Source of the DNA: an uncultured Candidatus Saccharibacteria bacterium
GTDB taxonomy: Bacteria > Patescibacteriota > Doudnabacteria > UBA920
Direction: 5' to 3'
Assembly (NCBI GenBank): GCA_964477745.1
Contig: CAYZEI010000001.1
Coordinates: 393 to 64,392 of the forward strand
Length of the DNA stretch: 64,000 nucleotides
A program made the position numbers and the translations under genes. The first letter of the stretch is position 1. Each line of letters opens with the position of its first letter. This document shows, one piece after another, positions 3,832 to 33,481 of this stretch. A model generated the notes under the pieces. That model was given only the letters and a program-made list of their open reading frames with translations, did not search any database and was not told the DNA's origin.

Positions 3832-3900
3832 CTTATAGGTCTTATAGGTCTTATAGGTCTTATAGGTCTTATAGGTCTTATAGGTCTTATGTCGCCTATA
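3832..3900. repeat. Tandem 9-bp repeat (CTTATAGGT x6 perfect plus one variant) ending in a short inverted repeat, directly abutting the start codon of the NTase gene
   Basis: Read directly: 3832-3885 holds six perfect CTTATAGGT units. Then CTTATGTCG, then CCTATAAG, which is the reverse complement of CTTATAGG. Plus ORF 3807..4007 is just this repeat translated as SYRSYR.... Confidence 0.85.
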
Positions 3901-4240
3901 AGCCTAGTCTGTCTAATGTTATTTCGTCCCACTCATCAAAATCAATTTCCTTAAAGACCCGAATTTTGTGGGAAAATTCGGTTTCGGAAAATTTATATTG
4001 CGCCTGAGCAGACTGCCCGGCGCGATGGGAAAACAGTTCTTTTTTTTCTAAGACTACAGGTTTATTTTCTCTTATAACTTTAAATTTTCCGGCAGGGTTG
4101 GTAAAAATTAAAATGTCTTGTGTTCCGGAAATAACGGGCCCGTCTTGCGTGTCCATAACCAAATCTTCTTTGGACAGCGTAACAAATTTAAAATGTTTTT
4201 GGGCAGTATTTACTAAATCCTGCCATTTGTCGTCTTGCAT
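3896..4240 (-). CDS. Hypothetical protein (114 aa)
   Basis: ORF only. No recognisable motif. Confidence 0.35.
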   Translation of the reverse strand: MQDDKWQDLVNTAQKHFKFVTLSKEDLVMDTQDGPVISGTQDILIFTNPAGKFKVIRENKPVVLEKKELFSHRAGQSAQAQYKFSETEFSHKIRVFKEIDFDEWDEITLDRLGL

Positions 4241-4341
4241 ATTTTACGAAGTACGAAACTTTACGAACTTACGAATTCTGGGACTACTGTACGTGTGTCT
4301 TTCGTACGTTCGTACCTATTCGTACTTCGTAAAGTCATTAA
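4241..4341. repeat. Nested-hairpin intergenic element, family 1 (TTACGAAGTACGAA ... TTCGTACTTCGTAA), complete copy
   Basis: Outer arms TTTTACGAAGTACGAA / TTCGTACTTCGTAAA and inner arms TTTACGAACTTACGAA / TTTCGTACGTTCGTAC surround a roughly 24-nt loop. The element exactly fills the gap between the stop of 4342..4560 and the start codon of 3896..4240. Homologous copies lie at 33482..33566, 19245..19279 plus 19682..19721, and a degenerate copy near 17230..17290. Confidence 0.8.
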
Positions 4342-4560
4342 TTATTGCAACAACGCCCCGTAGCTACCGGAAATAGAACTAAAGGCTATGGGTAAAATAA
4401 ATAAAGCAGCCAGTATCGGCAACACTACCAAAACAATGGTAATGTACAAAGACCACTTCATATAATTCTTGGTCTTGCGGGTATTCTCTAAAATTTCCGC
4501 CAATACTTCCTCAGTAGATAAAGTTTTTGTTTGCACTTGCTCTGTTTGATTTATTTCCAT
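4342..4560 (-). CDS. Small membrane protein (72 aa, one C-terminal TM helix)
   Basis: Hydrophobic segment LYITIVLVVLPILAALFILPIAF. No homology assignable. Confidence 0.4.
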   Translation of the reverse strand: MEINQTEQVQTKTLSTEEVLAEILENTRKTKNYMKWSLYITIVLVVLPILAALFILPIAFSSISGSYGALLQ

Positions 4561-4582
4561 ATTATGCTTAGTAAAATATTAA

Positions 4583-5452
4583 TTATAATTCATAAACAAA
4601 ATTTAATCCTAATTCTTTTTGCAAGCCTTGTCCTCCTCCAATAAGCCATGTAAAATTTTTCCTTTGGCTTTTAGGCATATTTTCTAAAGCTCTAGCAAAT
4701 TCCTCCGGAGAAGGCCAGTTAATATTGGCTTGAGTGACGGGCTTACTCTGCTGTTCTGCGCTTACTTTAATTAAACCCTCCAATTTTTCATTTTTCTCTT
4801 TTGGAATTTCCCAATTTGCGTCAGCTAAAATTTTAAATATTTCTTCATCTAAACAGCCTTCTGGTTCTTGCATCAGCTTATTAATAAGTTCTTCATTGTC
4901 TAAAATATTTTTTAATATTAAAGCATAATTATAATCAACGGCCTCATAGCAATCTTCTCCAAAATCTAAACAAAGCGTATAGGGGTAACCTCCTCTGCTT
5001 TTGACATCAAGAAGTTTTCTTAAAATAAGATAGCTCCCCCCATTCTTTTTTTTAGCCACCCCATAAGAAATTTTATTTCCACTTCTATCCAAACCCTCCC
5101 TTGTACCAGCAATTCCTGAGTCCATGGGCTGTTCTCCTCGTCTAATACGTTCAATATAGCCTGTTCCACCATAAGCGTATAAACTAAAATCCTTCAAATT
5201 TTTCCAAAATGTTATTATCTTTTCGGCTTGAAATCCTCCAACTATTTCTGCTGGTTGTTTATTATTTATAAGTGCCTCTTCCCACTGGTAAGCCCTCTGG
5301 GCCAACACAGGATCTCCAGATGCCTTAAGCCTGTCTATATGCTCTTGGGGTGTAACAATTCGTCCAGCTTTAAAATCATCAGGATCTGTGGCAGGCAATC
5401 CCAGCTCATCCTCTGGAACATCATTAAACAAATTTTTAGGTTGTTCTTTCAT
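4583..5452 (-). CDS. Hypothetical protein (289 aa)
   Basis: Long ORF in protein-like codon phase on the gene-dense minus strand. No motif recognised. Confidence 0.45.
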   Translation of the reverse strand: MKEQPKNLFNDVPEDELGLPATDPDDFKAGRIVTPQEHIDRLKASGDPVLAQRAYQWEEALINNKQPAEIVGGFQAEKIITFWKNLKDFSLYAYGGTGYIERIRRGEQPMDSGIAGTREGLDRSGNKISYGVAKKKNGGSYLILRKLLDVKSRGGYPYTLCLDFGEDCYEAVDYNYALILKNILDNEELINKLMQEPEGCLDEEIFKILADANWEIPKEKNEKLEGLIKVSAEQQSKPVTQANINWPSPEEFARALENMPKSQRKNFTWLIGGGQGLQKELGLNFVYEL

Positions 5453-17733: not shown

Positions 17734-17977
17734 TTTATTTAGAGATTTAGTTGGTTAGAGAATTAGATGGAGTAGTAAGTTGACCAGTATAATGTACTTT
17801 TAATTTAGTATGATAATGGCTAATTAACTGTTGATTTTTCGGTTTTTGAGGGCATTTAATACGACTTGTGTGGCAAGCCCTTACATTTAACCTATTTTAA
17901 AGCCTTTGTTTTTTTATCCGTTTCAGCAAAATGGGCTTTTTGTCTTTTGGTCTTGATTTCCTGTTCCAGTGCTACCT

Positions 17978-18022
17978 ACTAGATATAGTATCTCTAGTAA
18001 TAATTGTAATACTACATATAGT
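17978..18022. promoter_or_regulatory. Candidate tandem NrdR boxes (ACTAGATATAGT and ACTACATATAGT, 33 bp apart) in the nrdR-nrdJ upstream region
   Basis: Each is one mismatch from the NrdR-box core ACTATATATAGT as I recall it. A spacing of about three helical turns is typical of NrdR box pairs. They lie in a 700-bp non-coding stretch upstream of nrdR. Confidence 0.45.
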
Positions 18023-18140
18023 TTTTTACAAGGCCTTGAATTTATTAACAATTTAATATAAAAAAATTATGCGACCTGGAGATATCCACAAAAAATAAAT
18101 AAAACATCCCCTTTTCAATATTAAGGATATTGTATCAAAT

Positions 18141-18175
18141 ACAAAAACCCCCGGGGGCACAGCCGGGGGTTTGAA
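18141..18175. terminator. GC-rich hairpin terminator (AAACCCCCGG-loop-CCGGGGGTTT) flanked by A- and T-runs
   Basis: Seen directly. Likely terminates the 18435..18869 transcript on the minus strand. Confidence 0.6.
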
Positions 18176-18434
18176 ATTATATATTTTTGCCTTTCCTGTT
18201 TTCCTTTATTGGGTCTGTTGCCAAATGTCATTTTTGCCCAAAACGAGCTTGCTTGGTAAAATTTCCAAAAAAATTTATCCGCTTACCTTTCAGGTAAACA
18301 TCAAAATTTGTTTTGCAAATTTTCCACAAGCTATCTCATTTTGTATCAAAAAGCCCATTCGTCAATAGACCCCTCCTACAAATTTCTGCCGTCTGGTTAA
18401 TGAACCGAGGGTAAAAGTATGAGGAGCTTAGAGC

Positions 18435-18869: not shown

Positions 18870-19244
18870 AAATTTTTAAAGTTCAAAAGCTTAAAGTAGA
18901 AACTTACTTGGCTGTTTTACCCTCTCTGCGCCCAGCTATACACGGGACGAGAAGTGATTGCGCACACACTCCTTAACTAAAACAATCAAAGCAATTTAAG
19001 CTTTTCTATATTAATATTATTTAATTGTATTTTTGTTTTGTCCCGATGTCCATTCACAAATTTTGTGGGAATGGCTACCGGAACAGTTTTTGTTTCAATG
19101 AATCCATCCAAATATTATCGGGATGTATTCAATTATGTTTGATTTCTTTTGCTCCACCACCGGCGAAACAAAATCGACCTTAAGAAATCTTTAACTTATA
19201 TATTATAGCACAGCTACAGAAAAAAAGCAAGTCTTAATTTTCGA

Positions 19245-19279
19245 TTTTACGAAGTACGAAGCCATACGAACTTACGAAT
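19245..19279. repeat. Left half (outer + inner arm) of a family-1 hairpin element
   Basis: TTTTACGAAGTACGAAGCCATACGAACTTACGAAT directly abuts the stop codon of the GxxExxY gene. Confidence 0.75.
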
Positions 19280-19681
19280 CTAAGCGCTTACATTTACTAT
19301 GCGCTTATAATGTAATCCGCTTGGACCAAAATACGCCAATATCCCTAACTGCAATTTTTTTGCCACTAAATAATTATAGACCTGATCAATATGAGCTTTG
19401 GAAAATTTATCCCCTCTTTTCAACTCAACTACAACAATATTTTCAACTAAAAAATCAAAATAATTTTTTCCCACAATCTTACCTTCAAACAATATCGGGG
19501 CATACAACTGTTCTGTGTATTTTAAACCCGCCTTAGTCAACCCTACGGCAACAGCTTTTTGGTAAGTCTTTTCATATAATCCATAACCCAAACTTCCGTA
19601 CACATTTAAAAGGACACCAACGATTCTAAAGCATAGTTCGGGATAAATTAAATCCTGTCGCTTTAAAACATTTGGTGTCAT
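19280..19681 (-). CDS. GxxExxY-family protein (PD-(D/E)xK nuclease superfamily), embedded in a family-1 hairpin element
   Basis: LGYGLYEKTYQKA...GL....Q...P...G......D.LVENIVVVELK......H.DQVYNYL....LQLGILAYFG....KRIV matches the GxxExxY consensus I remember. Start and stop codons abut the two halves of the element. Confidence 0.7.
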   Translation of the reverse strand: MTPNVLKRQDLIYPELCFRIVGVLLNVYGSLGYGLYEKTYQKAVAVGLTKAGLKYTEQLYAPILFEGKIVGKNYFDFLVENIVVVELKRGDKFSKAHIDQVYNYLVAKKLQLGILAYFGPSGLHYKRIVNVSA

Positions 19682-20909: not shown

Positions 20910-21069
20910 GATTGATTACATTTAAACAATAATAGATATAAAAAATAAAATCAAGCGCTGAACAATTTTTAGACTGTTTTTCGCGTTTGATTTTTGTTTT
21001 GGGATATTTAACCGCTATTTTGGCAGTTACTTTTTGCTGTTAAAATTATAGCACACCCGTGGGTTTATG

Positions 21070-21108
21070 CAAAAATTCACCCGCTCTTTAGAATAAAGAG
21101 CGGGGTGA
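21070..21108 (-). terminator. Rho-independent terminator after the giant gene, before ftsZ
   Basis: CACCCGCTCTTTA-GAA-TAAAGAGCGGGGTG hairpin followed on the minus strand by a T-run. Confidence 0.6.
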
Positions 21109-21122
21109 ATAAGGTTTTGCAC

Positions 21123-24100
21123 CTATTTGACAGGTTTAGCGGGTTTTTTAGGATTTCCACCGCCTGCTTCTCTTTCGGCCCTGCGTTCCAACATTCTCTT
21201 ATGGGAGTCTTCCAATGCTTTTTTAATATCTTCAACTTGAGCGTCCGGAGGAATGCGTAAGAAATTTTTTGCCCCAAAGGCGGGCTTAGTCGCGCCGGCC
21301 TCAAAAGATAACAGGACTCCTTTACTTAAATCAGTATCCCGATGTGATGGATTTGTCTTATTCAGCAAACCATCTCTAATATTTTTCGGAAGTTGGTCTA
21401 ATGCAGAGTCAAATGCTTTCAATACTTTAAGCTTGTCACTGTCAGGCATTAATTTCCCGTCCATTATATAGTGCACCCGTTTTCCAGTCTTCTCCAATAG
21501 TTCCTTGCTCGCTGTGCCAAATTCAGTACCACCGGTTTCATTTGTCGATTTGGCGGTTTCTGATTTCGTCTCGACAAGCTTTTCGGATCCGGGTTTAGCA
21601 GTGGTTTCCGAAGCCCCTGGTTTCGGAGGCGCTTCAGAGCCTGGCTTAGGAGCAGCCGCTTTAGCTGCCGCTTCAATTTTTGCTTCCTCTTCCACTACAT
21701 CACCATAAAACTCCTCAACCTGATTTTGCTTTATTATATTCCCGGCAATTAAAGCTTGCTCCATTTGCCAAACAGCTTCTGCCCTCTCGGCTTTAGTAGC
21801 TTTATCCGGCTTTAAAATTTTTCCTTTATGAGCATCTCCCTCAACCACAAACCGAATAGCCTTTTTATCTATTTTTTTCAGGCCGGTATTTTGTCCGTAT
21901 AACTCAAGTAAGGCCGCGGCATATTGTGGGTTTAGGTAGCGCTTTAGAACATCACCTTTAAACTCAGGGGCTTTAGCTTCTGTGGTCTCACCGGCTGCTT
22001 TTTTGGTACCATCTTCTTGGCTTCCTCCTCCCCCACCACCAGACTCATTTCCGCCACTGCTACCTTTATCACCTGCTTTTTGGTCACCAGCTTTCTTTTT
22101 TGCTTCCTTTTCTTCTTGCTCTTTGTCTTTCTTTTCTTTATCCGCTTTTTGCTTGGCTTCTTTTTCTGCTTTTTTCTTTTGCTTCTTTTCTTCTTTTTCA
22201 TTTTCCCCGGGGCGATAGAAAACTTTTCTTTGTGGGGGAACAGTCGGCAAAGCTTGGTCATATTCAACCGGGCCTTTAACAGGCATAAAATCCTGGACGA
22301 CATCCTTTTTCCCAAAATCTATGCCCTGTCCGTTATTTTTTTCACTATTTATCCAAATATAATTTTTACTGCCATCACTTCTAGCCCCAGTTGCTTCCGC
22401 CAAGCCAAAGAACCCGGTGCCCTTTGGCCGTCCTGTGGCCGGGTCAAACAATTTGGCAATATTACTGTCTTTTGGAATTATTACTTCGTGGGTTTTGGAA
22501 TCCACATCTAAAACTATTGCGTCATGGGCATTTTTTCCGTCCGGCACAAATATCATTTTTATTTTTCCGTCCGCAAAAGCCTTTTCTAAATCCGGTTCCT
22601 GAACTTCCTGATTATGTATCATCCACGAACCGTCCTTCTCTACCGGAACTTTAAAATGAAAATTCCCACTACTATCTTTATTTATATAAAACTTCAATTC
22701 ATTGCCATTATGAGTATGTGGGGTTTCCCCAGTCGGGTTGTCGTACCAATTTTGCGTATGAATTTTTTCAATATTTCCTCCCGCAATATGGCCTTTTAAG
22801 CCTTTCATCCATTCCATTGAGGTCTGGTCACGGCTTCCGGTCACCACATGTTCCACCGCTGTTGCCCCGGCCATTACCGGATGCCCATCAAAATTACTTT
22901 GGTAGAACTTTGTACCTTTTACGCCATCTACAATCTTATCAAAAGAAGTATGGTGATTTTTAAAATAACTCCCACCCCATAACTTTTCAACCTGCTCACC
23001 ACCCAAATGTATAGCTTCCTGCGCTAAAATCCCACCGGCAAAACCCATAACCGCACCCTTTAATCCCGACACTAGCATTTCTTTTCGTTTAAAATCACCC
23101 TGTTTTTCGTTGACTTGTTTTATAACATCCAAAATGGCATTTTTTTCTTCATTGGCCATTATTTGCAAATCTTGCTCTTTAATTCCTAATTCTTTTAAGG
23201 CAATCTTTAAGTCGACTTTTGCCGAAACATTAGAACCATAACGTTTACCTTGGTCTTCATCCATACTAAACAAATCTACTTTGGTAAGCTTTTTACTTTG
23301 GTCTGCAATGGCATCTCTCTCTAATTGTAACCGCGCATAAATTTTTGCTAATTGCTGTTTCTCAGCTTCGGTGAAAGTTGTTTTGTCTTTCATAGATGCA
23401 ACTACTGCCATAGCATCTTTGAATGACATAACTACAGCATCATAACTGCGCTCACCTTTTTCACCCAAAACATCACTCCCTTTTCCGCCCAAAGTTTTTT
23501 GGCGCAATTCCTGAGCAGTATCATATTCCGTATCTTTACCGCGTTTAATCGCGCGATATACTCCCCCAACAGCTGCGCCAACTCCCAAAGGAACCCAAAA
23601 CCCGCCACCCGTTGCTACAGTGGCGCCACCAACCGCTGCCCATTTAATTGCACGCTGAACTCCTTGAGTGGCCACTGTTGTGGCGACACCCATAACAAAT
23701 GGGTTTAGTAGTATTTTGCCTAAAACCTTATTATTTTCACCCCAATTAACTGCTCTCTCAGATAAATTTAAAATGCCTTTCGGACGATTATTTACAATAT
23801 CCCTATCCTTAAAGCCCAATTGCAAATTCAAACCCCGGACACCTTCTACCTGCTTGCTTATAGCATCACGGATTGTTTCAATATTAGCTTCAGGATTCTT
23901 ATCCATAACTTCTTTAACCACCGCATCAATCTCTGATTTGTTTTCCTTATCTATAGATTCTAAAATTTCATAAAAATTGCTCGCATACAAAAGACCCTTG
24001 GTTTCATTTGTCCTGTCATTATTTGTGGTCCATTTCCCAGCCGATCTCCTGTTAATATAACCCGCAATGTTTTCTTTTACAAACAATTCTACAGCCGCAC

Positions 24101-26015
24101 GCTTATCTAATCCCTTATAGGCATCGCCGTCCCATTTATTGGTTCTATACCTATGCAACAGTTCTGAAAATCTGTCTTGAACTTCGGGATCATTATTCAT
24201 ACTGTCTCCAACCTCCCGCTGAGTGTCTACTAACTCTTTTTTATATTCCAAAACAACCTTATCCAACATTTCCAAGTATTCGCTGGATACAAGAGCTCCT
24301 GCTCCCGGCACTTCTACGCCAGATACCCGCTCAGAAATTGCCTTCATCAAATTATTATCTTTTTTAATTTCTTCTCTGGCCTCGGTAATAAGATTACGGC
24401 GGGTGGCAGCCTCTGTCATTCCCTTCCAAGCATTTTTTATAACCTTGCCAAAAAACCCGCCCTTGTGGTCAAAATGTTTTCTTAATTTTTCTTCAGCCTT
24501 TGTTTCCGCCATACGCTCAGCAATTGCGGAAATATCTATTAAGAAAAGCTTTTTGTCAGTTTTTTCTGGAGCAGGTACTTCTTTTACTGGAATTACGTCA
24601 AGTTTATTTTCCCAATCATAAGGCTTTTCATCATTTTCCAATTTATGTTTTGCTGGAGTTGGAGTTGGCTTTAAAGTAACAACAGGAGACTCTTCAGGAA
24701 TAATCTTTGTTGTAGATTCTGTGGTAGTAATAGGCGTTAGTTCTGGAGTTTTTTTAATAACCGGAGTGGATACAACTTCCGATTCCAATTCCTCTTTTGG
24801 CACCTGCTGTTCTTGTGGCAATACCAAAACCCGCCTGCTTTCCAACGCAAGCATGGCTAATTCATAATTCTGTCGCAACTCGTCCATTTTATCAAAATCT
24901 TGAGGCAACTTATTTTCTCCAACAAATCTTTCCAAAAGCATAGCCTTGTACTCTTCGTCTTTTGCAATAAGGTTGGCCTCGCGTTCGGTATAAAGATGTT
25001 GCTCCCTCTTTTGGCCTTCACCTAAGGGACTAACCGCCTCGCCGTCCTTTTTATAATTTTTTGGGTAATGAAAAGCAAAATACGGCAAGGAACTTTCTGA
25101 AAGCACCTTAACCAAATTATGATATTTGCCTAACGTTTTAGTACGGACATCCAGTTGTTCTTTTAGTTTTTTGTCGTCAATTTTTAAATATTTTTCCACC
25201 CGCTGGCGTAAAGCTTCGCCCAATTGCTGTTTTTTAAACTCTTCGTCATAACCGCCAAATACTTTCCCTTCCGCTTCGGCCTTTTTCCTGTCCGCTTCTT
25301 CCCAAGCTTCCACTTCTTTATACGCTTCTTCTTTAAGTTTATCTTTAACCGGCAACTTGTTTAACACTTCAAACCAAGCCATTTTCTTTTTGGCCTCTTC
25401 CCCACTAATATTTGCTCTAACGGATGCTAACTCATATTTTTCTTTAACTTTCCTGCTACCTTCTATACCCGCTTCTGTTCGGTGGGCTTGTCTGACCTGT
25501 TTTTCTGTTAATGCTCTTAACCTTTGGACTACTGTAATAAGCTCATCTACCGGTAAACCCTCCAACCGATGCGCATTAACTTTACCATTATTGTCCAGCA
25601 CTTCCACGGAATAGTTTTCTCCGTCTACAATTTTACTTTTCGCACCCTCCACGCTTTTTTGGATCCACTGTAGACGCGCTCTATCTTTAGCGGAAAGACT
25701 TGGTTCTGACAAAGCATTGGAAATTAAACGCAAAGAACCGTCTACGGACTCTTTAATTTCCGCTCGTTCCCGCGAAACTCTTTCGTTCTGTTCTTTAACT
25801 CTGTCAATTTCTGCCTGATTTTTTACCTTTTTTGTTTCCGGATTATCTTTTTTTACTGGCTGTTCTTTTTTTGCACCACTGTCAACAACGGGTTTACCAT
25901 TTTCCGGTTTATGTCCGCCATTGCCGTTATGCTCGGAGATTTGCTGTTCCCAGGTTTTACCGGCAAGTCTCTCGCTTGCTAATCTGACAGTGTCAAAACC
26001 ATTTTTTTTCGCCAT
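21123..26015 (-). CDS. Giant (1630 aa) K/E-rich coiled-coil protein with central glycine-zipper hydrophobic hairpin(s) and a C-terminal presumably extracytoplasmic domain; function unknown
   Basis: No signal peptide. About 790 N-terminal residues are charged and helical. Hydrophobic Gly-rich segments: ILLNPFVMGVATTVATQGV...AAVGGATVATGGGFWVPLGVGAAVGGVY and LKGAVMGFAGGILAQEAIHLGG. A KE-rich low-complexity block (EKEEKKQKKKAEKEAKQK...GGGGGGS). Pro-rich KPGSE repeats near the C-terminus. Confidence 0.7.
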   Translation of the reverse strand: MAKKNGFDTVRLASERLAGKTWEQQISEHNGNGGHKPENGKPVVDSGAKKEQPVKKDNPETKKVKNQAEIDRVKEQNERVSRERAEIKESVDGSLRLISNALSEPSLSAKDRARLQWIQKSVEGAKSKIVDGENYSVEVLDNNGKVNAHRLEGLPVDELITVVQRLRALTEKQVRQAHRTEAGIEGSRKVKEKYELASVRANISGEEAKKKMAWFEVLNKLPVKDKLKEEAYKEVEAWEEADRKKAEAEGKVFGGYDEEFKKQQLGEALRQRVEKYLKIDDKKLKEQLDVRTKTLGKYHNLVKVLSESSLPYFAFHYPKNYKKDGEAVSPLGEGQKREQHLYTEREANLIAKDEEYKAMLLERFVGENKLPQDFDKMDELRQNYELAMLALESRRVLVLPQEQQVPKEELESEVVSTPVIKKTPELTPITTTESTTKIIPEESPVVTLKPTPTPAKHKLENDEKPYDWENKLDVIPVKEVPAPEKTDKKLFLIDISAIAERMAETKAEEKLRKHFDHKGGFFGKVIKNAWKGMTEAATRRNLITEAREEIKKDNNLMKAISERVSGVEVPGAGALVSSEYLEMLDKVVLEYKKELVDTQREVGDSMNNDPEVQDRFSELLHRYRTNKWDGDAYKGLDKRAAVELFVKENIAGYINRRSAGKWTTNNDRTNETKGLLYASNFYEILESIDKENKSEIDAVVKEVMDKNPEANIETIRDAISKQVEGVRGLNLQLGFKDRDIVNNRPKGILNLSERAVNWGENNKVLGKILLNPFVMGVATTVATQGVQRAIKWAAVGGATVATGGGFWVPLGVGAAVGGVYRAIKRGKDTEYDTAQELRQKTLGGKGSDVLGEKGERSYDAVVMSFKDAMAVVASMKDKTTFTEAEKQQLAKIYARLQLERDAIADQSKKLTKVDLFSMDEDQGKRYGSNVSAKVDLKIALKELGIKEQDLQIMANEEKNAILDVIKQVNEKQGDFKRKEMLVSGLKGAVMGFAGGILAQEAIHLGGEQVEKLWGGSYFKNHHTSFDKIVDGVKGTKFYQSNFDGHPVMAGATAVEHVVTGSRDQTSMEWMKGLKGHIAGGNIEKIHTQNWYDNPTGETPHTHNGNELKFYINKDSSGNFHFKVPVEKDGSWMIHNQEVQEPDLEKAFADGKIKMIFVPDGKNAHDAIVLDVDSKTHEVIIPKDSNIAKLFDPATGRPKGTGFFGLAEATGARSDGSKNYIWINSEKNNGQGIDFGKKDVVQDFMPVKGPVEYDQALPTVPPQRKVFYRPGENEKEEKKQKKKAEKEAKQKADKEKKDKEQEEKEAKKKAGDQKAGDKGSSGGNESGGGGGGSQEDGTKKAAGETTEAKAPEFKGDVLKRYLNPQYAAALLELYGQNTGLKKIDKKAIRFVVEGDAHKGKILKPDKATKAERAEAVWQMEQALIAGNIIKQNQVEEFYGDVVEEEAKIEAAAKAAAPKPGSEAPPKPGASETTAKPGSEKLVETKSETAKSTNETGGTEFGTASKELLEKTGKRVHYIMDGKLMPDSDKLKVLKAFDSALDQLPKNIRDGLLNKTNPSHRDTDLSKGVLLSFEAGATKPAFGAKNFLRIPPDAQVEDIKKALEDSHKRMLERRAEREAGGGNPKKPAKPVK

Positions 26016-26019
26016 AGAA

Positions 26020-26349
26020 TTATTGTCCTAAATAAGCTTGTTTAAATTTCACCATCTCATCTTTAAAAATTTCGCTGATGTTTGGAATTTGCGTTCCAAC
26101 AAAAGCCATAATTTCTTCCTGGCTTGGACTGGTTGCCAGTAATTTTTCCATTTCCGGCGCAGCGGATTCCGGCAAGTGCTGAAAAATAGATTGCATTAAC
26201 CACTGTTGCAAACGGTCCGCTAGATCTTTTATCATTTGCTCTTTTAAACTTTCCGGAATGTCTTTAATTCCTTTGTCATAAAGACAAGAATCTAAAAAAG
26301 CGTACAAAGGAGGAGTTATTAAATTGTCTTGGGTATTTTGTGTGTCCAT
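26020..26349 (-). CDS. Small acidic protein (109 aa), co-operonic with the giant protein
   Basis: 4-bp gap to the giant ORF. Acidic and helical. No family recognised. Confidence 0.5.
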   Translation of the reverse strand: MDTQNTQDNLITPPLYAFLDSCLYDKGIKDIPESLKEQMIKDLADRLQQWLMQSIFQHLPESAAPEMEKLLATSPSQEEIMAFVGTQIPNISEIFKDEMVKFKQAYLGQ

Positions 26350-26370
26350 AAAAAAATTTAAATTTTGAGT

Positions 26371-28089
26371 TTAGGACAAGGCCTTAGAAATTCTGTCCAA
26401 AGCTTCGTCACTTAATGAGCCAAAAAGACCATCTTCATCACTGCCAATTTCTTCAGTTCCGAATATTTCTGCCACATATTTTAATTCTTTTTTTGCAGGC
26501 TTAACTACAACCGGCTCCGCTTCCCGAATTGGTTCTTCAGTTACAGGATCAAGTACTACTTTTGTAACTTCCGGAGCATCAACTATTTCAGGCTTTGTTT
26601 CTACAACTTTTTTAACGTGCCATAAGTCTGTTGGTAGAGGTTTGGCTCGCACATAACCTAATAGCGAATATTTTAAAACTTTCGCTTTGGTCATAGTTTC
26701 GTTTTCCGGCGCTTCCGCAAGAGGGTGGTCTTTTAAATACTCTTTTAACCCATCCATAGAAAGATTGTACAACTTCTGAAACTCCTTTAAAAATTCTTGT
26801 CTTGCGCCGACAAGAGTTTCTTTTCCCAATAAATAAAGCGCTTCAGTGCCTTTAAGCCCGGCATTTTGGGACAATTCAGATAAAATACTTTTGTATCCCA
26901 ACGCCTTTTCCAAAGATTCAAAGCGTGTCTTTAATAACTCCATAAAAGCTTTGGCCTTGGCTTGAAACTCTGGACTATTAAAATGCTCCTCGTCGGTACT
27001 CCAACGATTAATATTTCTTTCCGGCTGTGCGGGTAAAGGCGTTTGTACTAATTTTTCAAATCTTTTCTCACCAATAGCTTCAATCCATGTGTCCAAAACT
27101 GCCTTACTTTGGATTGATTCCTTAAAAGATGTTGTCTTAGTAAAATCTGGGAATTGAATTTGGGATCTATTTAAAACATCTTCAAAATCACCGCGCTCCT
27201 TTTTTTCGGAATCGGTTAAACTAATAAATTTTTTTCTTCGTAAAGCCAAATATTTTTCCACTTCAGGTTTTGACTTTTTGGTAATATTAACCAATTCTTC
27301 CACAGAAAAAGCATCTATTTCCTGCCAGTTATCAATTCTCCCATTCGGTCCCACGCCCACAACCAGATCACCTTTTTCTACGGCAAATCTAGGGTAAAAT
27401 TTTCCATTTGTCTCTACTAAAACTTGTCTGCAGGCTTCCACATATTTTTTTAACTCTTCCGGGCTTGCCACTTGTGCTACCGGAGACAAATAAATATAAT
27501 ATGGGGTCTTTTCTTTCCCCGCAATAACCGCCTTTAATTTATAAGGCAATCTGCTTTCGTCTATGGTTATTGATTCGGCCTTAAGTTCAGTTTCAGGATT
27601 TTCTGCCACTGCTGGAGCAACTACTTCCTGAACTTCAGCGCTGTCCTCGGGGATTACCGGCTCTACTTCAGGCTCGAGCATATAACCCAAGTATTCATCA
27701 CATTGGCGCTGATATTCTTCGTTATCAACTTGATGCGTTTTCCATCCTTTAACCACAGTCTTTATTTCATCATCAGACATTTCTTCCAAATAATTCTGCG
27801 GGGTAAGGGCAATGCTTTGTAAAAAATCCAACATCTCCGGTTGAGATTCTTCTATGCTAGTCGCAATGGATTTTAAATAACTGTTCAAATCAACCACACC
27901 CAGGCTTTCATCGTTGACTTCTTCAGGATGCTGACGATAATTAAATCCTACGGCAAAAGCCAAACGCGATTTTTTGGAAATACTTTTAGGCAAATCTTTA
28001 ATTTCTGAAATTTCAGGAACATCTGGAACATTAGGGGCACCTTCTAGCCCCTTTAAGTCTGATAATTTAGTATATTTAGATTCGTCCAT
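26371..28089 (-). CDS. Acidic soluble protein (572 aa), first gene of the giant-protein operon
   Basis: 21-bp gap to the next gene. No TM. E/D-rich. No family recognised. Confidence 0.6.
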   Translation of the reverse strand: MDESKYTKLSDLKGLEGAPNVPDVPEISEIKDLPKSISKKSRLAFAVGFNYRQHPEEVNDESLGVVDLNSYLKSIATSIEESQPEMLDFLQSIALTPQNYLEEMSDDEIKTVVKGWKTHQVDNEEYQRQCDEYLGYMLEPEVEPVIPEDSAEVQEVVAPAVAENPETELKAESITIDESRLPYKLKAVIAGKEKTPYYIYLSPVAQVASPEELKKYVEACRQVLVETNGKFYPRFAVEKGDLVVGVGPNGRIDNWQEIDAFSVEELVNITKKSKPEVEKYLALRRKKFISLTDSEKKERGDFEDVLNRSQIQFPDFTKTTSFKESIQSKAVLDTWIEAIGEKRFEKLVQTPLPAQPERNINRWSTDEEHFNSPEFQAKAKAFMELLKTRFESLEKALGYKSILSELSQNAGLKGTEALYLLGKETLVGARQEFLKEFQKLYNLSMDGLKEYLKDHPLAEAPENETMTKAKVLKYSLLGYVRAKPLPTDLWHVKKVVETKPEIVDAPEVTKVVLDPVTEEPIREAEPVVVKPAKKELKYVAEIFGTEEIGSDEDGLFGSLSDEALDRISKALS

Positions 28090-28154
28090 AAAGATGTCTA
28101 AATGAATATATTTTTGTTTCTTTTTTATATAATAACTTACCTTTATTAAAGCAT

Positions 28155-28198
28155 AAAAATGATAAAAAGAAAAGCGCCAGAATCATGAGATTCTGGCG
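28155..28198 (-). terminator. Rho-independent terminator (CGCCAGAATC-ATGA-GATTCTGGCG + T-run on minus strand)
   Basis: Perfect 10-bp stem. Separates the Pro-rich gene trio from the giant-protein operon. Confidence 0.65.
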
Positions 28199-28248
28199 GC
28201 AGTAGAAATAAAGCCGCTACTAGCTTCGGCGCATCTTCACGCGAACTC

Positions 28249-28980
28249 TTACGGGGTAATAACCCCGAGTACAGGCACAATCTTGTGCCCAACAGTAGCT
28301 GCCGGTCCGGAGACCGGCCACAGCCACCATGCCAAGAATGCTTCAGCGGGGCAAAAGCCGATTTTCTCGGCAGTTCCCCACTTGGACCAATCGCGGATAC
28401 CAACGGTGTACGCATACACGCAGTGGATAACCGGTAACTTGGTCCACAAAGGCCGACCCTTCTTGTCCCAAGTCAAGGTGACCTGGTACTGTCCGGTTTC
28501 CGGCCAATCGGGCGGGGGCGGAAGCTCGTTGAGCTCCACCGGCGGTTCGGCCGGTGGTAAAGTTACTTCCGGTTCCGCAGGTGGCGGAGGTGGTGGTGGC
28601 TCGGGAGCCGGTGGCGGAGGTGGTGGTGGAACAGGAACGTACTCAAGAGAATACACCTTATTCCCGCAATCATACCGCACCATTACTGAACTTCCGGAGA
28701 AGATGAACTTCTCGCCGGCTGCTTGGGGAACAAACCCCTTGCCACCAACGATATCCATCTCTACGCACGCACGCTCCTCAAGAGCGCGAATTTCTTCACC
28801 AACCGCCGGTTCGCGGTGACGGTTAAGGAAAGACGGGGTGTAATTTGAAAACTCCCCACTCTCCACCGCCGAGACGCACGCGGCCATTGTTGCAAAACGC
28901 GTTTTGCCGGTTTCCGCTCCGAAGAGCATCATCCCGGCGAAGATTGAAAGACACAAGAGTTTCAACATAGCCACCAACAA
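28249..28980 (-). CDS. Secreted poly-proline protein (243 aa) with Trp-rich C-terminal domain
   Basis: Signal peptide MLVAMLKLLCLSIFAGMMLFGA. PVPPPPPPPAPEPPPPPPPAEPE tract. Local GC well above the window average. Confidence 0.55.
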   Translation of the reverse strand: MLVAMLKLLCLSIFAGMMLFGAETGKTRFATMAACVSAVESGEFSNYTPSFLNRHREPAVGEEIRALEERACVEMDIVGGKGFVPQAAGEKFIFSGSSVMVRYDCGNKVYSLEYVPVPPPPPPPAPEPPPPPPPAEPEVTLPPAEPPVELNELPPPPDWPETGQYQVTLTWDKKGRPLWTKLPVIHCVYAYTVGIRDWSKWGTAEKIGFCPAEAFLAWWLWPVSGPAATVGHKIVPVLGVITP

Positions 28981-29195
28981 ACTTTTGGTTCACCTAATAG
29001 CTATAAGCTAAAACCAAAAAGCTAACTGGTCGCTATGTTGAAATCTACAATTTCCTCCTTATATTATTTTAGACAAATTTTGCCTAATGTTTTTTACCAA
29101 AATATTTTTAGTATAAAACATCAAACAAAATTTTTAAAAGTGGTGGTAGAAGTGCGGGCCGATTGGGTCCGCACTTCTACCTTGCTTATAAAGCG

Positions 29196-30443
29196 TTACT
29201 GGGCTTTGCAGCCCTTGGGGGGCCGTGCCCCCTCATTCAGCATTCCGAGCGACATGAGTCGCTTGAATGCTGAACACTTGTTGCTCTTGCTGTCGGTGAT
29301 GGCGGCTGCGCCAACCACCGCCAGCGTCTCGTGATCCGAGTTCTGGTTATCCCGAAGGGTAACCATCCGCTCCTCCGCGGTTGTAAGACGACTGCCCAAC
29401 TCTACCTGTCGGCTCGCCAACAAATTCTGGCGACCTTCAACCGCAACGAGCCGGTCGACGACCTGCTGGCCGAGGCCAGAAGGAGCAGGAGCCGAGTTGT
29501 TGGGTGTTGCCGACATCATTGTCGGCGGATTGATGACCGGAGCCGGTGGGGCCGGAGGAGTGCTGGGCATTGCTGCCTTCACACCCTCCATCACCGCACG
29601 CTTGATATCATCCGCCGTGAGTTGCGAAACCACAGGCCGAGGGGCCGGTGGGGCAACGTGGCGACGAACAGGAGAAGGCGCGGGTGCAGAAACGGCCGGC
29701 TTGGGAGCCGGAGTAACTGCCGGAGCAGGCGTCGGATTGACGATCTGACTCAACCAGCCCTGGATACCGTTCACCTTTCCCCAAACCCAAACCTCGTTAG
29801 CGGTCTGTGCGGTTGCCGTCTGACCCAATGCTCCGAAGAGCAAGAGGGCAAACAGTATCATGGGCAGAACGTTTCCACAATTCGCGCAAAACCGATCGAA
29901 TTGAGTCGGCTTCGGCACATTGCAATTGGGACACGGTGTCCCAGCAGGCGCAAGATGCGCCGGCGTTGGATTCCTCAAACTCGCTGCCAGATCAATGTTG
30001 ATTGGAGGTGGCGGATTGAGTTGAACCGTAACCGGAACAGTCATCTGATTTCCCGTTGCCGGATGATGACCGTTGGTACGGTTCCTTCGAACCAGCGCCA
30101 AAATCACACCGCCGACAATGAGCAAGGCCAAGAGAGCCAAGAACCACTGGCCGTATCCCCAATCCGTTGAGGGAATGGGGCTGACAGTGGCGTCCTTGTG
30201 GCTGTACTTGTTCATGACCGCCACAACCTTTTCGCCCTTTGCCATGGCCTGTTGGATCTCCTGATCCAGAGGTGTGGCAGGAGCAGTTGGGGTCGTGGTC
30301 GGAGCAAGCCCTTCAGGCTTCGGGCAGAACGTCTGCCCGCCTTCGATTTTGAAACATCCAGCGGGAACGGTCTGGGCGTTGACAGTGGTCACCAGCGCGC
30401 AGCTGGCGACGAGAACGGTGAGAGCGAACAATGTGTTACGCAT
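29196..30443 (-). CDS. Pro-rich membrane protein with cytoplasmic Cys4 zinc ribbon (416 aa from ATG 30443; the track ORF extends to 30569)
   Basis: The ATG at 30443 has AAGGAG 10 nt upstream and starts a signal peptide MRNTLFALTVLVASCALVTTVNA. TM WFLALLALLIVGGVILALV. Zinc ribbon CPNC...CANC. Second hydrophobic segment, then Pro/Ala-rich ectodomain. Confidence 0.55.
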   Translation of the reverse strand: MRNTLFALTVLVASCALVTTVNAQTVPAGCFKIEGGQTFCPKPEGLAPTTTPTAPATPLDQEIQQAMAKGEKVVAVMNKYSHKDATVSPIPSTDWGYGQWFLALLALLIVGGVILALVRRNRTNGHHPATGNQMTVPVTVQLNPPPPINIDLAASLRNPTPAHLAPAGTPCPNCNVPKPTQFDRFCANCGNVLPMILFALLLFGALGQTATAQTANEVWVWGKVNGIQGWLSQIVNPTPAPAVTPAPKPAVSAPAPSPVRRHVAPPAPRPVVSQLTADDIKRAVMEGVKAAMPSTPPAPPAPVINPPTMMSATPNNSAPAPSGLGQQVVDRLVAVEGRQNLLASRQVELGSRLTTAEERMVTLRDNQNSDHETLAVVGAAAITDSKSNKCSAFKRLMSLGMLNEGARPPKGCKAQ

Positions 30444-30974
30444 GGAAATGGACTCCTTAGATTTCCGGCGCTCGCCGGTTTTTTTGCAAGAATAGCGAGC
30501 GCCTCTTGCAGACAGTAGAGAATTAACTTCCCTATTCTCCGCAAAAGGCGTAACCATTCCTTGCAACAATCCAATTTCTCCATTCTATTCCCTATTCGCT
30601 AATCGCTATTTACTAAACTAAAAGTAACGCTTTATAACTTAAACCTCCGTTTAAGTTTTTATTAAAGAACTTGCCTATTTAATGTAGAGACAATCTCCCA
30701 TTAAGTAGACCTTATATTATACTCTTTTTTCAGTATTTTGTCAAGTCCTAATCTAAATACTAATTAACTAATAAAATGCCTTATTTAAGCCAAAAAAATC
30801 AAAAAGAGGTATCGGCGAGCAAATATGCTCAAGCGCGACACCTCTGACGAATAAATCTTGCGTTTTGTTGGGTTCGCTACCCAAGCGTAATCAGTCAATT
30901 TGGACACAACTGACTACTACTTCCTCCTACTAAATTCTTTCTTCAAAAATGCTGAATCTGGATCGTCCAAAATT

Positions 30975-32024
30975 CTACATCCCCGAAGATTCCCTCCGCT
31001 CGGCCCTTTCGGCAATCTGCTTGATATCCTCCGAAAGAGGACGAGGAACTATCGACAGCTTTCGAGGAGACTGAACCGGCCCAATTGGTTCATGAGCCTC
31101 TGGAACCGCTTTCACGATCTGCGGAGGCTTTTCCGTACTGATGCGACGCCGGCGAATCGTCTTCCGTAGGCTTTTCATTTGCCTATCGACCCATACGGGA
31201 TTAGACTGAAGGGCCAAATAGGTTAACAAAAATACCGCCAGAAATACCATAAGGGTAATAAAGCGGAGGAAGTAAGGCTTCGTCTCCGCGCGCCTTTGGG
31301 ATTCCTGCTTCGCTGGTTCTTCTTCGGTTGTCTGAGAGGGCGCCGGAGCAGGAGCAGAAGCCACCTGAGGGGCCTCGTCAACCACTTTCCCAACTAGCAT
31401 TGTTATGCCACTGGGGTCTTGATTGACTTGATCCTTTGTAGCAACCGCCAACTTCTTTTCAGTTGCCGGCGGAATTTCCAGTGGCGCTTGCTTGGCAACA
31501 ACTTTCGCTGGTACCGGAACTGTCGGAATCACCTTCACAGGCGTTGGCGCCGTAGTGGCAACCTTGGCCACTACGGGTGTTGGGGTTGCTTTTGGCGCCG
31601 GTGTTGGAGTCGTTTTTGCAACGACCTTAGCCGGAGAAGTCTTCGGCGTTGGCGCCGGAGCGACGACGACTGCCACCACTTTTTTCGTGGTTGCTGTCGA
31701 GCTCAATATTTCAACCTCACCGAACTTTGCGTTTTCAGCCGCCAAGTATTCTGCCAGGCTAACCTGGTTAATCTTGGTGCCCTTGATCAACCAAAGCTGG
31801 TCGCCCGGGTGGAAGGAGCGAACTTCGTCCTTCCCGACCTTCTCGCCAGTTGCGGTGCCTTTGCGCAACTCAGTGTAGAGTCGCGCATTGTAGCCGACCG
31901 ATTCAACTGCTTCCATTAGTCCCTGGCCAGGAGCCAGGGTAATTTGTACGTCACGGTCTGGAATGGCCTGCGCCATTGCCATAACCGTGAAAAGCAGAGC
32001 TAAAACAAACCTTGTGGGGTTCAT
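30975..32024 (-). CDS. Bitopic envelope protein: signal peptide, LysM-like N-domain (tentative), Pro/Thr/Ala/Val-rich linker, TM helix, basic cytoplasmic tail
   Basis: MNPTRFVLALLFTVMAMAQA signal. TPTPAPKATPTPVVAKVATTAPTPVKVIPTVPVPAKV linker. TM YFLRFITLMVFLAVFLLTYLAL. The LysM call is a weak pattern match only. Confidence 0.6.
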   Translation of the reverse strand: MNPTRFVLALLFTVMAMAQAIPDRDVQITLAPGQGLMEAVESVGYNARLYTELRKGTATGEKVGKDEVRSFHPGDQLWLIKGTKINQVSLAEYLAAENAKFGEVEILSSTATTKKVVAVVVAPAPTPKTSPAKVVAKTTPTPAPKATPTPVVAKVATTAPTPVKVIPTVPVPAKVVAKQAPLEIPPATEKKLAVATKDQVNQDPSGITMLVGKVVDEAPQVASAPAPAPSQTTEEEPAKQESQRRAETKPYFLRFITLMVFLAVFLLTYLALQSNPVWVDRQMKSLRKTIRRRRISTEKPPQIVKAVPEAHEPIGPVQSPRKLSIVPRPLSEDIKQIAERAERRESSGM

Positions 32025-32178
32025 ATTGCCCTCCCTTTCTCTTTTTTAACTTCAAACTTCCAAGACCCTGTGGTCTTGTATTTATTTACGTCCAACTGAC
32101 GCGAATAAATACAAGACCGCTATGAGTTTAAGAATCATTATACTAAAAAAACACCTGTTAGTCAATGCTAAATAGGCA

Positions 32179-32208
32179 ACAAAAAAACCTCTATTTTTAG
32201 AGGTTTCT
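32179..32208 (-). terminator. Rho-independent terminator after ftsA (AACCTCTA-TTTTT-TAGAGGTT + T-run on minus strand)
   Basis: Perfect 8-bp stem. An A7 run on the plus strand gives a U-tract on the minus transcript. Confidence 0.65.
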
Positions 32209-32230: not shown

Positions 32231-33481
32231 CTACGGCAAAAAGGATTTAAACCATTTTCTTAATTTGGCCACGCCTTCGTTACTCATAATATTTTTTACC
32301 ATTCCGCCCAGTTCAGCCGCGGAATTTTTGGCGGAAAATTTCCCGCCCCACAAAACCAAACCAACCGCTGTGGCAAATGAGGGATCATCTACCCGGTCTA
32401 TAACTGTACTGACGTTTTGCGGTTTGCCTAAAACAGTAGGCAGGCGCAAATTCTTTTTGGCAAATTCCACCATTCCGGGCATTTTACTACCTCCACCGGT
32501 TAAGACTATTCCGGCCGGCAATTTACCGTCGCGCTGGATTTTTTTTAGCTCCGAAACCACCATTCGGAAAATTTCTTCCAAACGGGCTTCAATAATTTCT
32601 ACTACATACTGTCTGGATGTGGCCTGGTCTTCGCTTTTATCTAACTTGGATAAATCTATTTCTTCTTCTTTGGAAATTTCTCCCGGGTTACAATGCCCGT
32701 AAAGTACTTTTACTTTCTCCGCGGTTTCAATTCCACAACGCAAACCAATCGCTACGTCATTGGTAATATGCATACTACCCAAAGGTAAAACCGAAGTGTG
32801 GAGTAGATCCCCTTCTTCATAAACGGCAATGCTAGTGGTGCCGGCGCCTAAGTCTACCAAACACACGCCCAAATCTTTCTGGCGTTTGCTTAACACACTT
32901 TCGGCCGCTGCACATGGAGCCAAAACCAAATCTTCTATTTCCAAACCCGCCTGCATAACCGCACGGGTTAAATTTTTAATAAACGGCAAGCCCGCTTGGA
33001 CAATAATTGTATCTACCTCTAAACGAATCCCGCTCATACCGGCCGGATCCTTAATTCCGGTCTGTCCGTCCAACGTAAAAGTTTTGGGGAAAACATGCAA
33101 GACTTCTTTATTTTGCGGAATGGAAATGGCTTGACTGGCATCTATGCAACGGATAATATCATTTTCCGTAATTTCGCCGTCTGCTCGGGAAACGGCAATA
33201 ACGCCATGGGAAGAAACCGAGGAAATATGATTTCCACCCACCGAAACATTAGCCGCCGAGACCGGCACGCCGGTCATGCGTTCAACTTTTTCCAAAGCGG
33301 AAGAAATGGAAGAAACTGCTTCTTCAATATCTACAATAACCCCACGTCGAAGACCCGTAGAAGGCACTTCGCTGGCGCCAATAATATTAAAAGACCCGGT
33401 TTGCGAGTCCAACTTTGCCTGCACCGCGCGAACATTGGCTGTTCCAACATCTACGCCAACAATGTATTGTTCTTTAGCCAT
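32231..33481 (-). CDS. ftsA: Cell division protein FtsA
   Basis: Actin-fold ATPase motifs (VGVDVGT..., DLGAGTTSIAV, GGGS). Length and pattern match FtsA. Confidence 0.9.
   Translation of the reverse strand: MAKEQYIVGVDVGTANVRAVQAKLDSQTGSFNIIGASEVPSTGLRRGVIVDIEEAVSSISSALEKVERMTGVPVSAANVSVGGNHISSVSSHGVIAVSRADGEITENDIIRCIDASQAISIPQNKEVLHVFPKTFTLDGQTGIKDPAGMSGIRLEVDTIIVQAGLPFIKNLTRAVMQAGLEIEDLVLAPCAAAESVLSKRQKDLGVCLVDLGAGTTSIAVYEEGDLLHTSVLPLGSMHITNDVAIGLRCGIETAEKVKVLYGHCNPGEISKEEEIDLSKLDKSEDQATSRQYVVEIIEARLEEIFRMVVSELKKIQRDGKLPAGIVLTGGGSKMPGMVEFAKKNLRLPTVLGKPQNVSTVIDRVDDPSFATAVGLVLWGGKFSAKNSAAELGGMVKNIMSNEGVAKLRKWFKSFLP

Follow-up and report, generated by a model that had tools for sequence, protein, structure and literature searches.

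The genes ftsA and ftsZ form one of the most stable bacterial gene pairs, at the end of the division and cell wall (dcw) cluster, and variable islands of accessory genes between conserved neighbours are a known kind of genomic feature. Here we describe a locus that recalls both, found in a 64-kb stretch of contig CAYZEI010000001.1 from an uncultured member of the Doudnabacteria (hereafter the window), where an island of six genes separates ftsA from ftsZ by 11.3 kb. The locus agrees with the canonical end of the dcw cluster in that both genes are present, co-directional and in the canonical order, and in that the C-terminal peptide of FtsZ is kept; it differs in that the spacer holds 2-9 unrelated genes in one clade and that yqeY, not ftsQ, lies upstream of ftsA. 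With accessory-gene hotspots it shares fixed flanks, varying cargo, genes confined to single species, toxin-antitoxin modules, atypical composition and mosaic alleles with sharp boundaries, but it interrupts the division cluster at its most conserved pair of genes, shows no integrase, tRNA or flanking repeats, and retains a recurrent core despite the turnover. What is new is the location inside the ftsA-ftsZ pair and the cargo. We consider it somewhat better than an even bet (probability about 0.55) that the 11.3 kb are the local version of a lineage-specific, high-turnover, recombining island of accessory envelope genes, housed in a safe-harbour spacer between ftsA and ftsZ in one clade of Doudnabacteria.

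The six open reading frames (ORFs) of the island occupy positions 21123..32024 and run in the same direction as the two division genes. In the order of transcription, the region comprises:

32231..33481, minus strand: ftsA, the upstream boundary of the island (Pfam FtsA, 1.8e-36, 125.7 bits; SHS2_FTSA, 5.8e-28, 97.5 bits)
30975..32024, minus strand: p349, with a predicted signal peptide, a small N-terminal domain, a Pro/Thr/Ala/Val/Lys-rich stalk, a transmembrane helix at aa 248-279 and an Arg-rich basic tail
29196..30443, minus strand: p457, with a predicted signal peptide, a transmembrane helix, a zinc-ribbon-like CxxC...CxxC, a second transmembrane helix and a Pro/Ala-rich C-terminal region
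28249..28968, minus strand: p243, with an N-terminal signal or transmembrane segment, a Cys-containing domain, a poly-Pro tract and a Trp-rich C-terminal domain
26371..28089, minus strand: p572, acidic, without a transmembrane segment or signal peptide, first gene of an operon
26020..26349, minus strand: DUF5663 protein of 109 aa (Pfam PF18908, 24.9 bits against a gathering cut-off of 23.7)
21123..26015, minus strand: giant protein of 1630 aa, starting 4 bp past the DUF5663 stop codon
19722..20909, minus strand: ftsZ, the downstream boundary (Pfam Tubulin, 9e-47, 160 bits; FtsZ_C, 2.7e-36, 124 bits)

The original prediction, made from the sequence of the window, had identified ftsA and ftsZ as co-directional genes with six others in between, and both the Pfam matches and the reading of the ORFs agree with it. 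FtsA has the actin fold of its family, with SHS2 (1C) as the inserted domain, and FtsZ combines the Tubulin/FtsZ GTPase domain with FtsZ_C and the conserved C-terminal peptide; its C-terminus reads ...DELDIPAFIRKKMK, so that the peptide DIPAFIRKK, pointed out earlier as the FtsA-binding one, is indeed kept, the last residues being DIPAFIRKKMK. The same gene order was present in independent assemblies (L001, L002, L003 and L097-L099), hence the gap is not an assembly artefact or a chimera. The loci added by a scan of metagenome contigs, four in number, all had this gene order, and the FtsA protein is 100% identical among strains L001-L004. L001 is a strain of the window's species with flanking genes 99-100% identical to those of the window. 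Compared with it, the island genes differ predominantly at third codon positions, and the ratio of nonsynonymous to synonymous substitution rates (dN/dS) is 0.09-0.35 for the five genes divergent enough to be scored, while p243 shows one differing site only. All six genes are thus real and under purifying selection. The codon-position differences, the dN/dS values and the conserved homologues rule out both pseudogenes, a possibility that the original prediction had raised against itself, and wrong frames, i.e. the plus-strand ORFs that overlap the genes in the GC-rich stretch.

To place the island among relatives, one genome per species was scanned with the FtsZ of the window, which gave 80 loci, the specifically named records being mostly Candidatus Doudnabacteria or "Patescibacteria group", while many TPA assemblies bear the name "uncultured Candidatus Saccharibacteria", presumably a generic label; ORFs were called at all 80 loci, clustered into families and mapped. 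In about 38 species outside one FtsZ clade, the order is sigpep-hisS-HIT-S21-yqeY-ftsA-ftsZ, with an ftsA-ftsZ gap of 0-208 bp. In the window's own FtsZ clade, about 30 informative members have a widened gap. It measures 2.5 kb in L086, whose spacer holds only two small genes, and goes beyond 10 kb in others, with 14 kb in the complete example L088; the longest spacers exceed 14 kb. Three members of the clade (L009, L026 and L045) have gaps of 184-412 bp that are best read as secondary losses. The synteny comparison, which the original prediction had proposed for dating the event, indicates that adjacency of ftsA and ftsZ is ancestral and that the insertion is specific to this lineage, in keeping with what had been supposed.

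Within the clade, the flanks are conserved and the cargo differs among close relatives, as seen in the maps of the 80 loci and in the FtsZ tree annotated with gap states. A recurrent core can be recognized, namely p457-like, p243/F33-like, p572-like, DUF5663 (or DUF5663-like, ~100-120 aa), giant (1300-1780 aa) and ftsZ. This order is seen in L027, L012, L088 and L098, and part of it also in L005 and L099. By an iterated hidden Markov model (HMM) search, the families of the giant protein ("giant", F67 and F40) proved to be one superfamily. Many cargo genes were found in a single species only. In L007, the closest species (97% FtsZ identity), about 7 kb of additional DNA with PP2C, kinase-like and toxin-antitoxin genes lies between the giant gene and ftsZ. 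Toxin-antitoxin pairs of an MNT nucleotidyltransferase and a HepT HEPN RNase (F35/F36) occur immediately 5' of ftsZ in L007 (9222-9966), L015, L017, L022 and L033. At least 11 species encode, on the opposite strand, proteins of 300-560 aa with a C-terminal T4SS_pilin domain scoring above the gathering cut-off (F26 and F58). Among the other cargo, L031 has a SpoIIE/PP2C protein and L058 a PaaX-like one. The six genes are therefore present here as described earlier, but they do not form a fixed unit, since the cargo changes even in the closest species. Likewise, relatives do routinely carry related genes at this site, although none comes with an annotated function.

One cargo gene deserves separate mention. 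The PEP-CTERM sorting signal is normally tied to the exosortase systems of diderm bacteria, and a protein with this motif (Pfam, 4e-15) is encoded at 3789-5186 (minus strand) of L079, inside the island of a low-GC Patescibacteria genome, with a GC content at third codon positions (GC3) of 0.69; its horizontal acquisition is possible.

Signs of horizontal exchange were also found in the window itself. Identity to L001 is 99-100% in the flanks versus 75-88% in patches covering p457 (29100-30300), p572 (27000-27600) and the giant gene (23400-24600). The synonymous divergence (dS) in these patches is 0.17-0.52, and for five of the six island genes it is 0.07-0.52, compared with 0.03 in the flanks (ftsA and hisS); the boundary of divergence at the 3' end of p457 is sharp. 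The island alleles are recombination mosaics, with the pattern left by import through homologous recombination. Furthermore, three GC3 classes can be distinguished: 0.55-0.63 for p349, p457 and p243 (0.55, 0.63 and 0.59, respectively), 0.32-0.35 for the operon of p572, DUF5663 and giant genes, and 0.40-0.48 for housekeeping genes. The explanation that Pro and Ala codons alone raise the GC content of the first three genes was rejected, as the GC3 excess persists at other codons. A similar contrast recurs in low-GC relatives, for instance in L012, with a GC3 of 0.65 for the p457- and p243-like genes versus 0.23-0.29 for the giant gene and ftsZ. More generally, the Pro-rich envelope genes of the window (28249-32024) and of L005, L012, L027, L068 and L088 have a GC3 of ~0.55-0.75 versus 0.25-0.45 for other genes of the relatives, and this persistent bias possibly reflects genes imported repeatedly from lineages of high GC or a composition under selection.

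The predicted signals of transcription initiation and termination in the gap are, in the order of transcription:

32180..32206, minus strand: intrinsic terminator of ftsA, AAACCUCU...AGAGGUUU followed by U7 (-12.7 kcal/mol, z = -5.4)
32137..32165, minus strand: promoter-like site before p349, TTGACT-17-TATAAT (11/12 consensus positions)
30792..30846, minus strand: terminator-like hairpin (30846-30805) and T-run after p349 (-25.2 kcal/mol, z = -5.2)
30716..30744, minus strand: promoter before p457, TTGACA-17-TATAAT (perfect consensus, 12/12)
29145..29181, minus strand: hairpin with a 16-bp stem after p457 (-27.4 kcal/mol, z = -6.9)
28170..28199, minus strand: intrinsic terminator after p243 (-17.4 kcal/mol, z = -5.7)
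21070..21108, minus strand: intrinsic terminator after the giant gene (-20.7 kcal/mol, z = -7.5)
21045..21073, minus strand: extended -10 promoter of ftsZ itself, TTTGCA-17-TGTGCTATAAT

The three terminators named in the original prediction (32179-32208, 28155-28198 and 21070-21108) were recovered as hairpins with T-runs at 32206-32180, 28199-28170 and 21108-21070. The division of the gap into two terminator-bounded units, however, had to be revised, since p349 and p457 each end in a strong hairpin of their own. From these additional hairpins and the promoters it follows that p349, p457 and p243 would be three monocistronic units, which together with the operon of p572, DUF5663 and giant genes (intergenic spacings of 21 bp and 4 bp) makes four predicted units. 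With five stable hairpins followed by U-runs and three consensus-like promoters, the island is predicted to be transcriptionally insulated from both ftsA and ftsZ. In an alignment of the 260 bp 5' of ftsZ, the TGTGCTATAAT promoter was conserved in the island-bearing as well as in the adjacent-type species.

Two other sequence elements were noted in the gap. The island-bearing species have a second, proximal motif 5' of ftsZ, CTTGATTTTATTTT...TATCTATTAT; in the form CTTGATTTTATTTT(T)TATATCTATTAT it was found in the window (20930-20975) and in 10 relatives, ~15-40 bp before the ftsZ start, and was not seen in L009, L026 and L045, three species of the adjacent type. The motif may represent another promoter or a site of regulation. 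In addition, a perfect 15-nt inverted repeat, TTATAAAGCGTTACT / AGTAACGCTTTATAA, brackets p457 (29186-29200 and 30623-30637), with one arm in the 5' leader and the other overlapping the stop codon. None of 100 shuffles of the window gave such a repeat, i.e. none is expected by chance, and both arms are exactly conserved in L001 although the enclosed gene is only ~80% identical; the repeat could serve 5'-3' pairing of the mRNA or mark the boundary of a cassette.

These observations suggest how the island might be maintained. It sits exactly between the intrinsic terminator of ftsA and the own promoter of ftsZ, and because of this position genes could be gained, swapped or lost without disturbing either division gene, which is why we refer to the spacer as a safe harbour. 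Since the whole clade tolerates a recombining island between ftsA and ftsZ, the transcription of either gene would not depend on that of the other in this lineage. The island itself consists of two compositionally distinct parts: (i) three high-GC3 monocistronic genes for putative secreted or membrane-anchored Pro/Ala/Thr-rich envelope proteins and (ii) the low-GC3 operon, of which the last two genes represent a cassette that other genomes carry as well, made up of a small helical DUF5663 protein and a protein of >1,200 aa on a presumed glycine-zipper hairpin. Its alleles would be exchanged by homologous recombination within the population. The cultivated Patescibacteria are epibionts. The island most likely specifies a cell-envelope or cell-surface apparatus and, by analogy with that epibiont habit, plausibly one for contact with host cells, whereas its place beside ftsZ most likely reflects a landing site, not a function.

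As to the first part of the island, p349, p457 and p243 look like secreted or membrane-anchored envelope proteins; signal peptides, transmembrane helices and Pro-rich stalks were discerned in them, much as the original prediction of a trio of Pro-rich envelope proteins had it. p349 has a dN/dS of 0.35 relative to L001 and no Pfam match. p457 is the most divergent cassette between the strains (dS 0.52, dN/dS 0.24), and its zinc ribbon is a sub-threshold Pfam match (E = 0.002). For the "457-aa" ORF, the most likely start is the ATG at 30443, behind an AAGGAG ribosome-binding site, which would give a protein of 415 aa that opens with the signal peptide. Similarly, the "243-aa" ORF most likely starts at the ATG at 28968, corresponding to 239 aa, the start also called in a sister assembly; relatives carry members of the same family (p243/F33).

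In the operon, p572 (dN/dS 0.25, GC3 0.32) has counterparts of 389-1089 aa among relatives. We considered the possibility that it is the detached N-terminus of the giant protein, but the two share no similarity. The DUF5663 protein is the best conserved product of the island, with a mean column identity of 75% over 22 homologues and a dN/dS of 0.09. It passes the PF18908 gathering cut-off, all 23 of 23 homologues were already annotated as PF18908, and it is a predicted five-helix bundle without hydrophobic segments (AlphaFold2 predicted local distance difference test score [pLDDT] of 81). In the giant protein (dN/dS 0.14), a conserved core (~aa 480-1270) is framed by two variable ends, the N-terminal one (aa 1-480) charged and the C-terminal one Lys/Glu-rich. 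Besides a helical domain, the core comprises a hydrophobic hairpin of the Gly-zipper type (~aa 765-830) and another hydrophobic segment, the third (~aa 982-1005), followed by a beta-rich domain; the hydrophobic segments are invariant and Gly/Ala-rich. A homologue of 2105 aa, P0107 (L091, 8001-14318), carries a C-terminal PP2C domain (35.7 bits versus a cut-off of 24), which hints at signalling for the giant family. Because of this fusion and of the highly charged C-terminus, the region past the hydrophobic segments is perhaps cytoplasmic, and the giant may be a mostly cytoplasmic protein anchored in the membrane by its hairpin, rather than a surface protein. For the membrane-spanning coiled-coil protein of the original prediction, this would mean a Gly-zipper hairpin as the anchor and perhaps a location largely inside the cell.

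The DUF5663 and giant genes were also found together far beyond the clade. Word-indexed homologue searches returned close relatives only (8 clusters for the giant, 3 for p457 and 23 for DUF5663). An exhaustive profile search with the giant core gave 181 clusters at 50% identity (E up to 1e-3), 93 of them at E up to 1e-30; nearly all matches are 1200-2575 aa long, and the common part is mainly the helical domain and the hydrophobic segments. In all five distant contexts inspected, a DUF5663-like gene (100-128 aa) lies upstream of the giant gene, with a ~60-aa gene intervening in two of them; in the three contexts tested by tblastn (L089, L090 and L091), its similarity to the DUF5663 protein of the window had E values of 1e-17 to 3e-9. 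ftsZ was adjacent to the cassette in none of the five, which are as follows:

L089: cassette beside four T4SS_pilin genes
L090: DUF5663 and giant genes followed by a 111-aa gene and the gene of a type IV coupling protein, in an apparent operon (matches of the coupling protein: TrwB_AAD_bind, 45 bits, gathering cut-off 20.5; T4SS-DNA_transf; TraG-D_C)
L091/L092: cassette between rplA and thrS, with the giant fused to a C-terminal PP2C domain
L093/L094: HopA1-domain protein next after the cassette
L095/L096: LCP-family protein next after the cassette

DUF5663 (PF18908) is a family without known function and was not mentioned in the literature searched; we found no description of its strict pairing with a giant protein encoded downstream.

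Comparison of the six proteins with reference collections yielded little else. Pfam (E up to 0.01) gave only DUF5663 and the sub-threshold zinc ribbon, NCBIfam no match better than E = 0.13, and PADLOC none that would mark an anti-phage defence island; relatives do carry MNT/HepT pairs at the site. In PHROGs, p572 matched one family weakly (E 0.038), itself of unknown function, and the other five proteins matched none. No match to the giant protein was found among PDB sequences. These searches, of the kind recommended in the original prediction, leave its statement that no equivalent had been described standing, with DUF5663 as the only assignment.

The readings that compete with the recombining envelope island differ mainly in what they make of its position. 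The six genes could form a lineage-specific divisome or cytoskeletal module, in which the giant, DUF5663 and p572 proteins would scaffold or regulate FtsZ and FtsA at the septum and the envelope proteins would remodel the wall there, the position being functional. We judge this unlikely, yet several of our observations fit it and weigh against an island merely harboured beside ftsZ. The island keeps its site, and nearly always its co-directional orientation with ftsA and ftsZ, over ~30 species of a clade with ~75-97% FtsZ identity to the window; the DUF5663 protein is strongly conserved; and a DUF5663-like gene is often the last one before ftsZ (L029, L030, L079 and L011). Divergent FtsZ/tubulin paralogues of 560-608 aa are encoded in the islands of L088 (3153-4979, 608 aa), L041 (1-1680) and L008 (1681-3423), and PP2C or SpoIIE-type domains occur in island proteins of L007 and L031 as well as in P0107. 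There are weak points of another kind, too: the clade tree is a neighbour-joining tree of FtsZ and, being built on one protein, is only indicative; transmembrane and signal calls rest on hydropathy, with Kyte-Doolittle values of only ~1.57 for the hydrophobic segments of the giant; and the AlphaFold2 model of its core, from a 9-sequence alignment, has a pLDDT of 50.7 and gave no Foldseek match in PDB at E up to 0.001. SpoIIE of Bacillus is a membrane-anchored PP2C phosphatase that binds FtsZ, and a large membrane-anchored protein near division genes, with PP2C in a homologue and in the same spacer of a relative, may recall it by analogy; the giant of the window, however, has no PP2C domain, no sequence similarity to SpoIIE and a different type of anchor. 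FtsZ-like and TubZ-like families are divergent FtsZ/tubulin paralogues, to which the three island proteins are comparable in their weak but consistent resemblance to the GTPase domain of Tubulin/FtsZ. The Pfam Tubulin scores of 26-29 bits (L088, L041) and 18 bits (L008) stay under the cut-off of 33, and BLASTP of the L088 protein against genuine FtsZ gave 3e-6. The signature loops of these proteins are altered, e.g. GYGKGTGEG in L088. No such paralogue was found in the window, nor was a PP2C domain found in its island. Moreover, terminators and separate promoters are predicted to insulate the island from both division genes, so that co-transcription or co-regulation with them is not apparent; three members of the clade are adjacent again, and L086 retains two small genes only; gene content turns over even at 97% FtsZ identity; and none of the six proteins matched the Pfam or NCBIfam models of FtsQ/DivIB, FtsL/FtsB, ZapA, SepF, EzrA, DivIVA or SpoIIE. 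As the cassette occurs in other genomes away from ftsZ, position alone is weak evidence for a role in division. Of the two alternatives offered by the original prediction, a lineage-specific divisome or an envelope/attachment module, the lineage specificity and the envelope character have thus gained ground, whereas insulation, turnover and the cassettes remote from ftsZ have weakened the divisome. A more elaborate version, in which the cassette and a p572-like partner would be a membrane-anchored scaffold of the division or cell-shape machinery of Patescibacteria, recruited into the ftsA-ftsZ locus and in some species joined by an FtsZ paralogue and PP2C signalling, with the Pro-rich proteins as septal wall or attachment factors, seems to us rather doubtful.

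The contexts outside the clade call to mind a different system. Type IV secretion systems (T4SS; MPF-FATA-like) are widespread in Patescibacteria (PMC12102498), and the island could encode an accessory of this secretion or pilus-like machinery. The giant would then belong to its membrane part, with DUF5663 as partner or chaperone, and the Pro-rich proteins would be surface components or substrates. The apparent operon with a type IV coupling protein in L090 and the four pilin genes next to the cassette in L089 speak in its favour, as do the islands of at least 11 Doudnabacteria species that encode T4SS_pilin-domain proteins, either between giant gene and ftsZ or at another place. Proximity to pilins may nevertheless be coincidental, because T4SS_pilin-domain genes are scattered widely in these genomes, and in three of the five distant contexts T4SS genes are missing from the surroundings of the cassette. 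In the window, the six-frame ORFs of all 64 kb gave no match to the pilin family HMM (E up to 10), nor did tblastn find a homologue of the coupling protein of L090; the giant protein matched none of the VirB6, VirB8 and VirB4 Pfam models and fits no T4SS component model, and neither VirB4, coupling protein, VirB6-like protein nor pilin was found nearby, though no search dedicated to VirB4 was made. We regard this explanation as improbable. The island proteins of the window are not mentioned in the paper on the Patescibacteria systems (PMC12102498). A decayed prophage or integrative element inserted between ftsA and ftsZ is a far weaker candidate and is largely refuted. The atypical composition with its three GC3 classes and the toxin-antitoxin modules at the site in relatives would be compatible with it, and the giant, in the role of a tape-measure-like or conjugation protein, bears a superficial likeness to tape-measure proteins, which are long and helical with central Gly-rich hydrophobic segments. 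Yet no integrase, recombinase, capsid, terminase or relaxase gene and no flanking direct repeats were found at the island, PHROGs recognized none of the proteins except for the weak match of p572, the viral contigs of IMG/VR, as far as pattern-based detection reaches, contained no relatives of the giant core or DUF5663, and the island persists vertically through the whole clade.

On the other side of ftsZ, the window contains a PD-(D/E)XK nuclease-family gene, p144 (19280-19681; PF13366, 1.5e-26), 40 bp 3' of ftsZ. It is found at that position in few relatives (L012, L016 and L018), which makes the ftsZ-p144 junction a second, smaller variable spot. The segments around it (17734-18434, ~700 bp, and 18870-19279, ~400 bp) contain no ORF of at least 80 aa and no Rfam match at gathering thresholds, and at the p144-nrdR junction relatives carry extra genes, some with high GC3.

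If the link to division were true after all, the island would provide a new divisome component in a phylum with a poorly known division machinery. On the reading that we prefer, that of a recombining island of accessory envelope genes, the spacer between ftsA and ftsZ offers a defined and easily located view onto accessory genes that evolve fast, in a group that is uncultured and probably dependent on hosts. The cassette of DUF5663 and giant genes, represented by at least 181 clusters at 50% identity from diverse metagenomic and genome contigs, is a target for structural and genetic work in tractable Patescibacteria.

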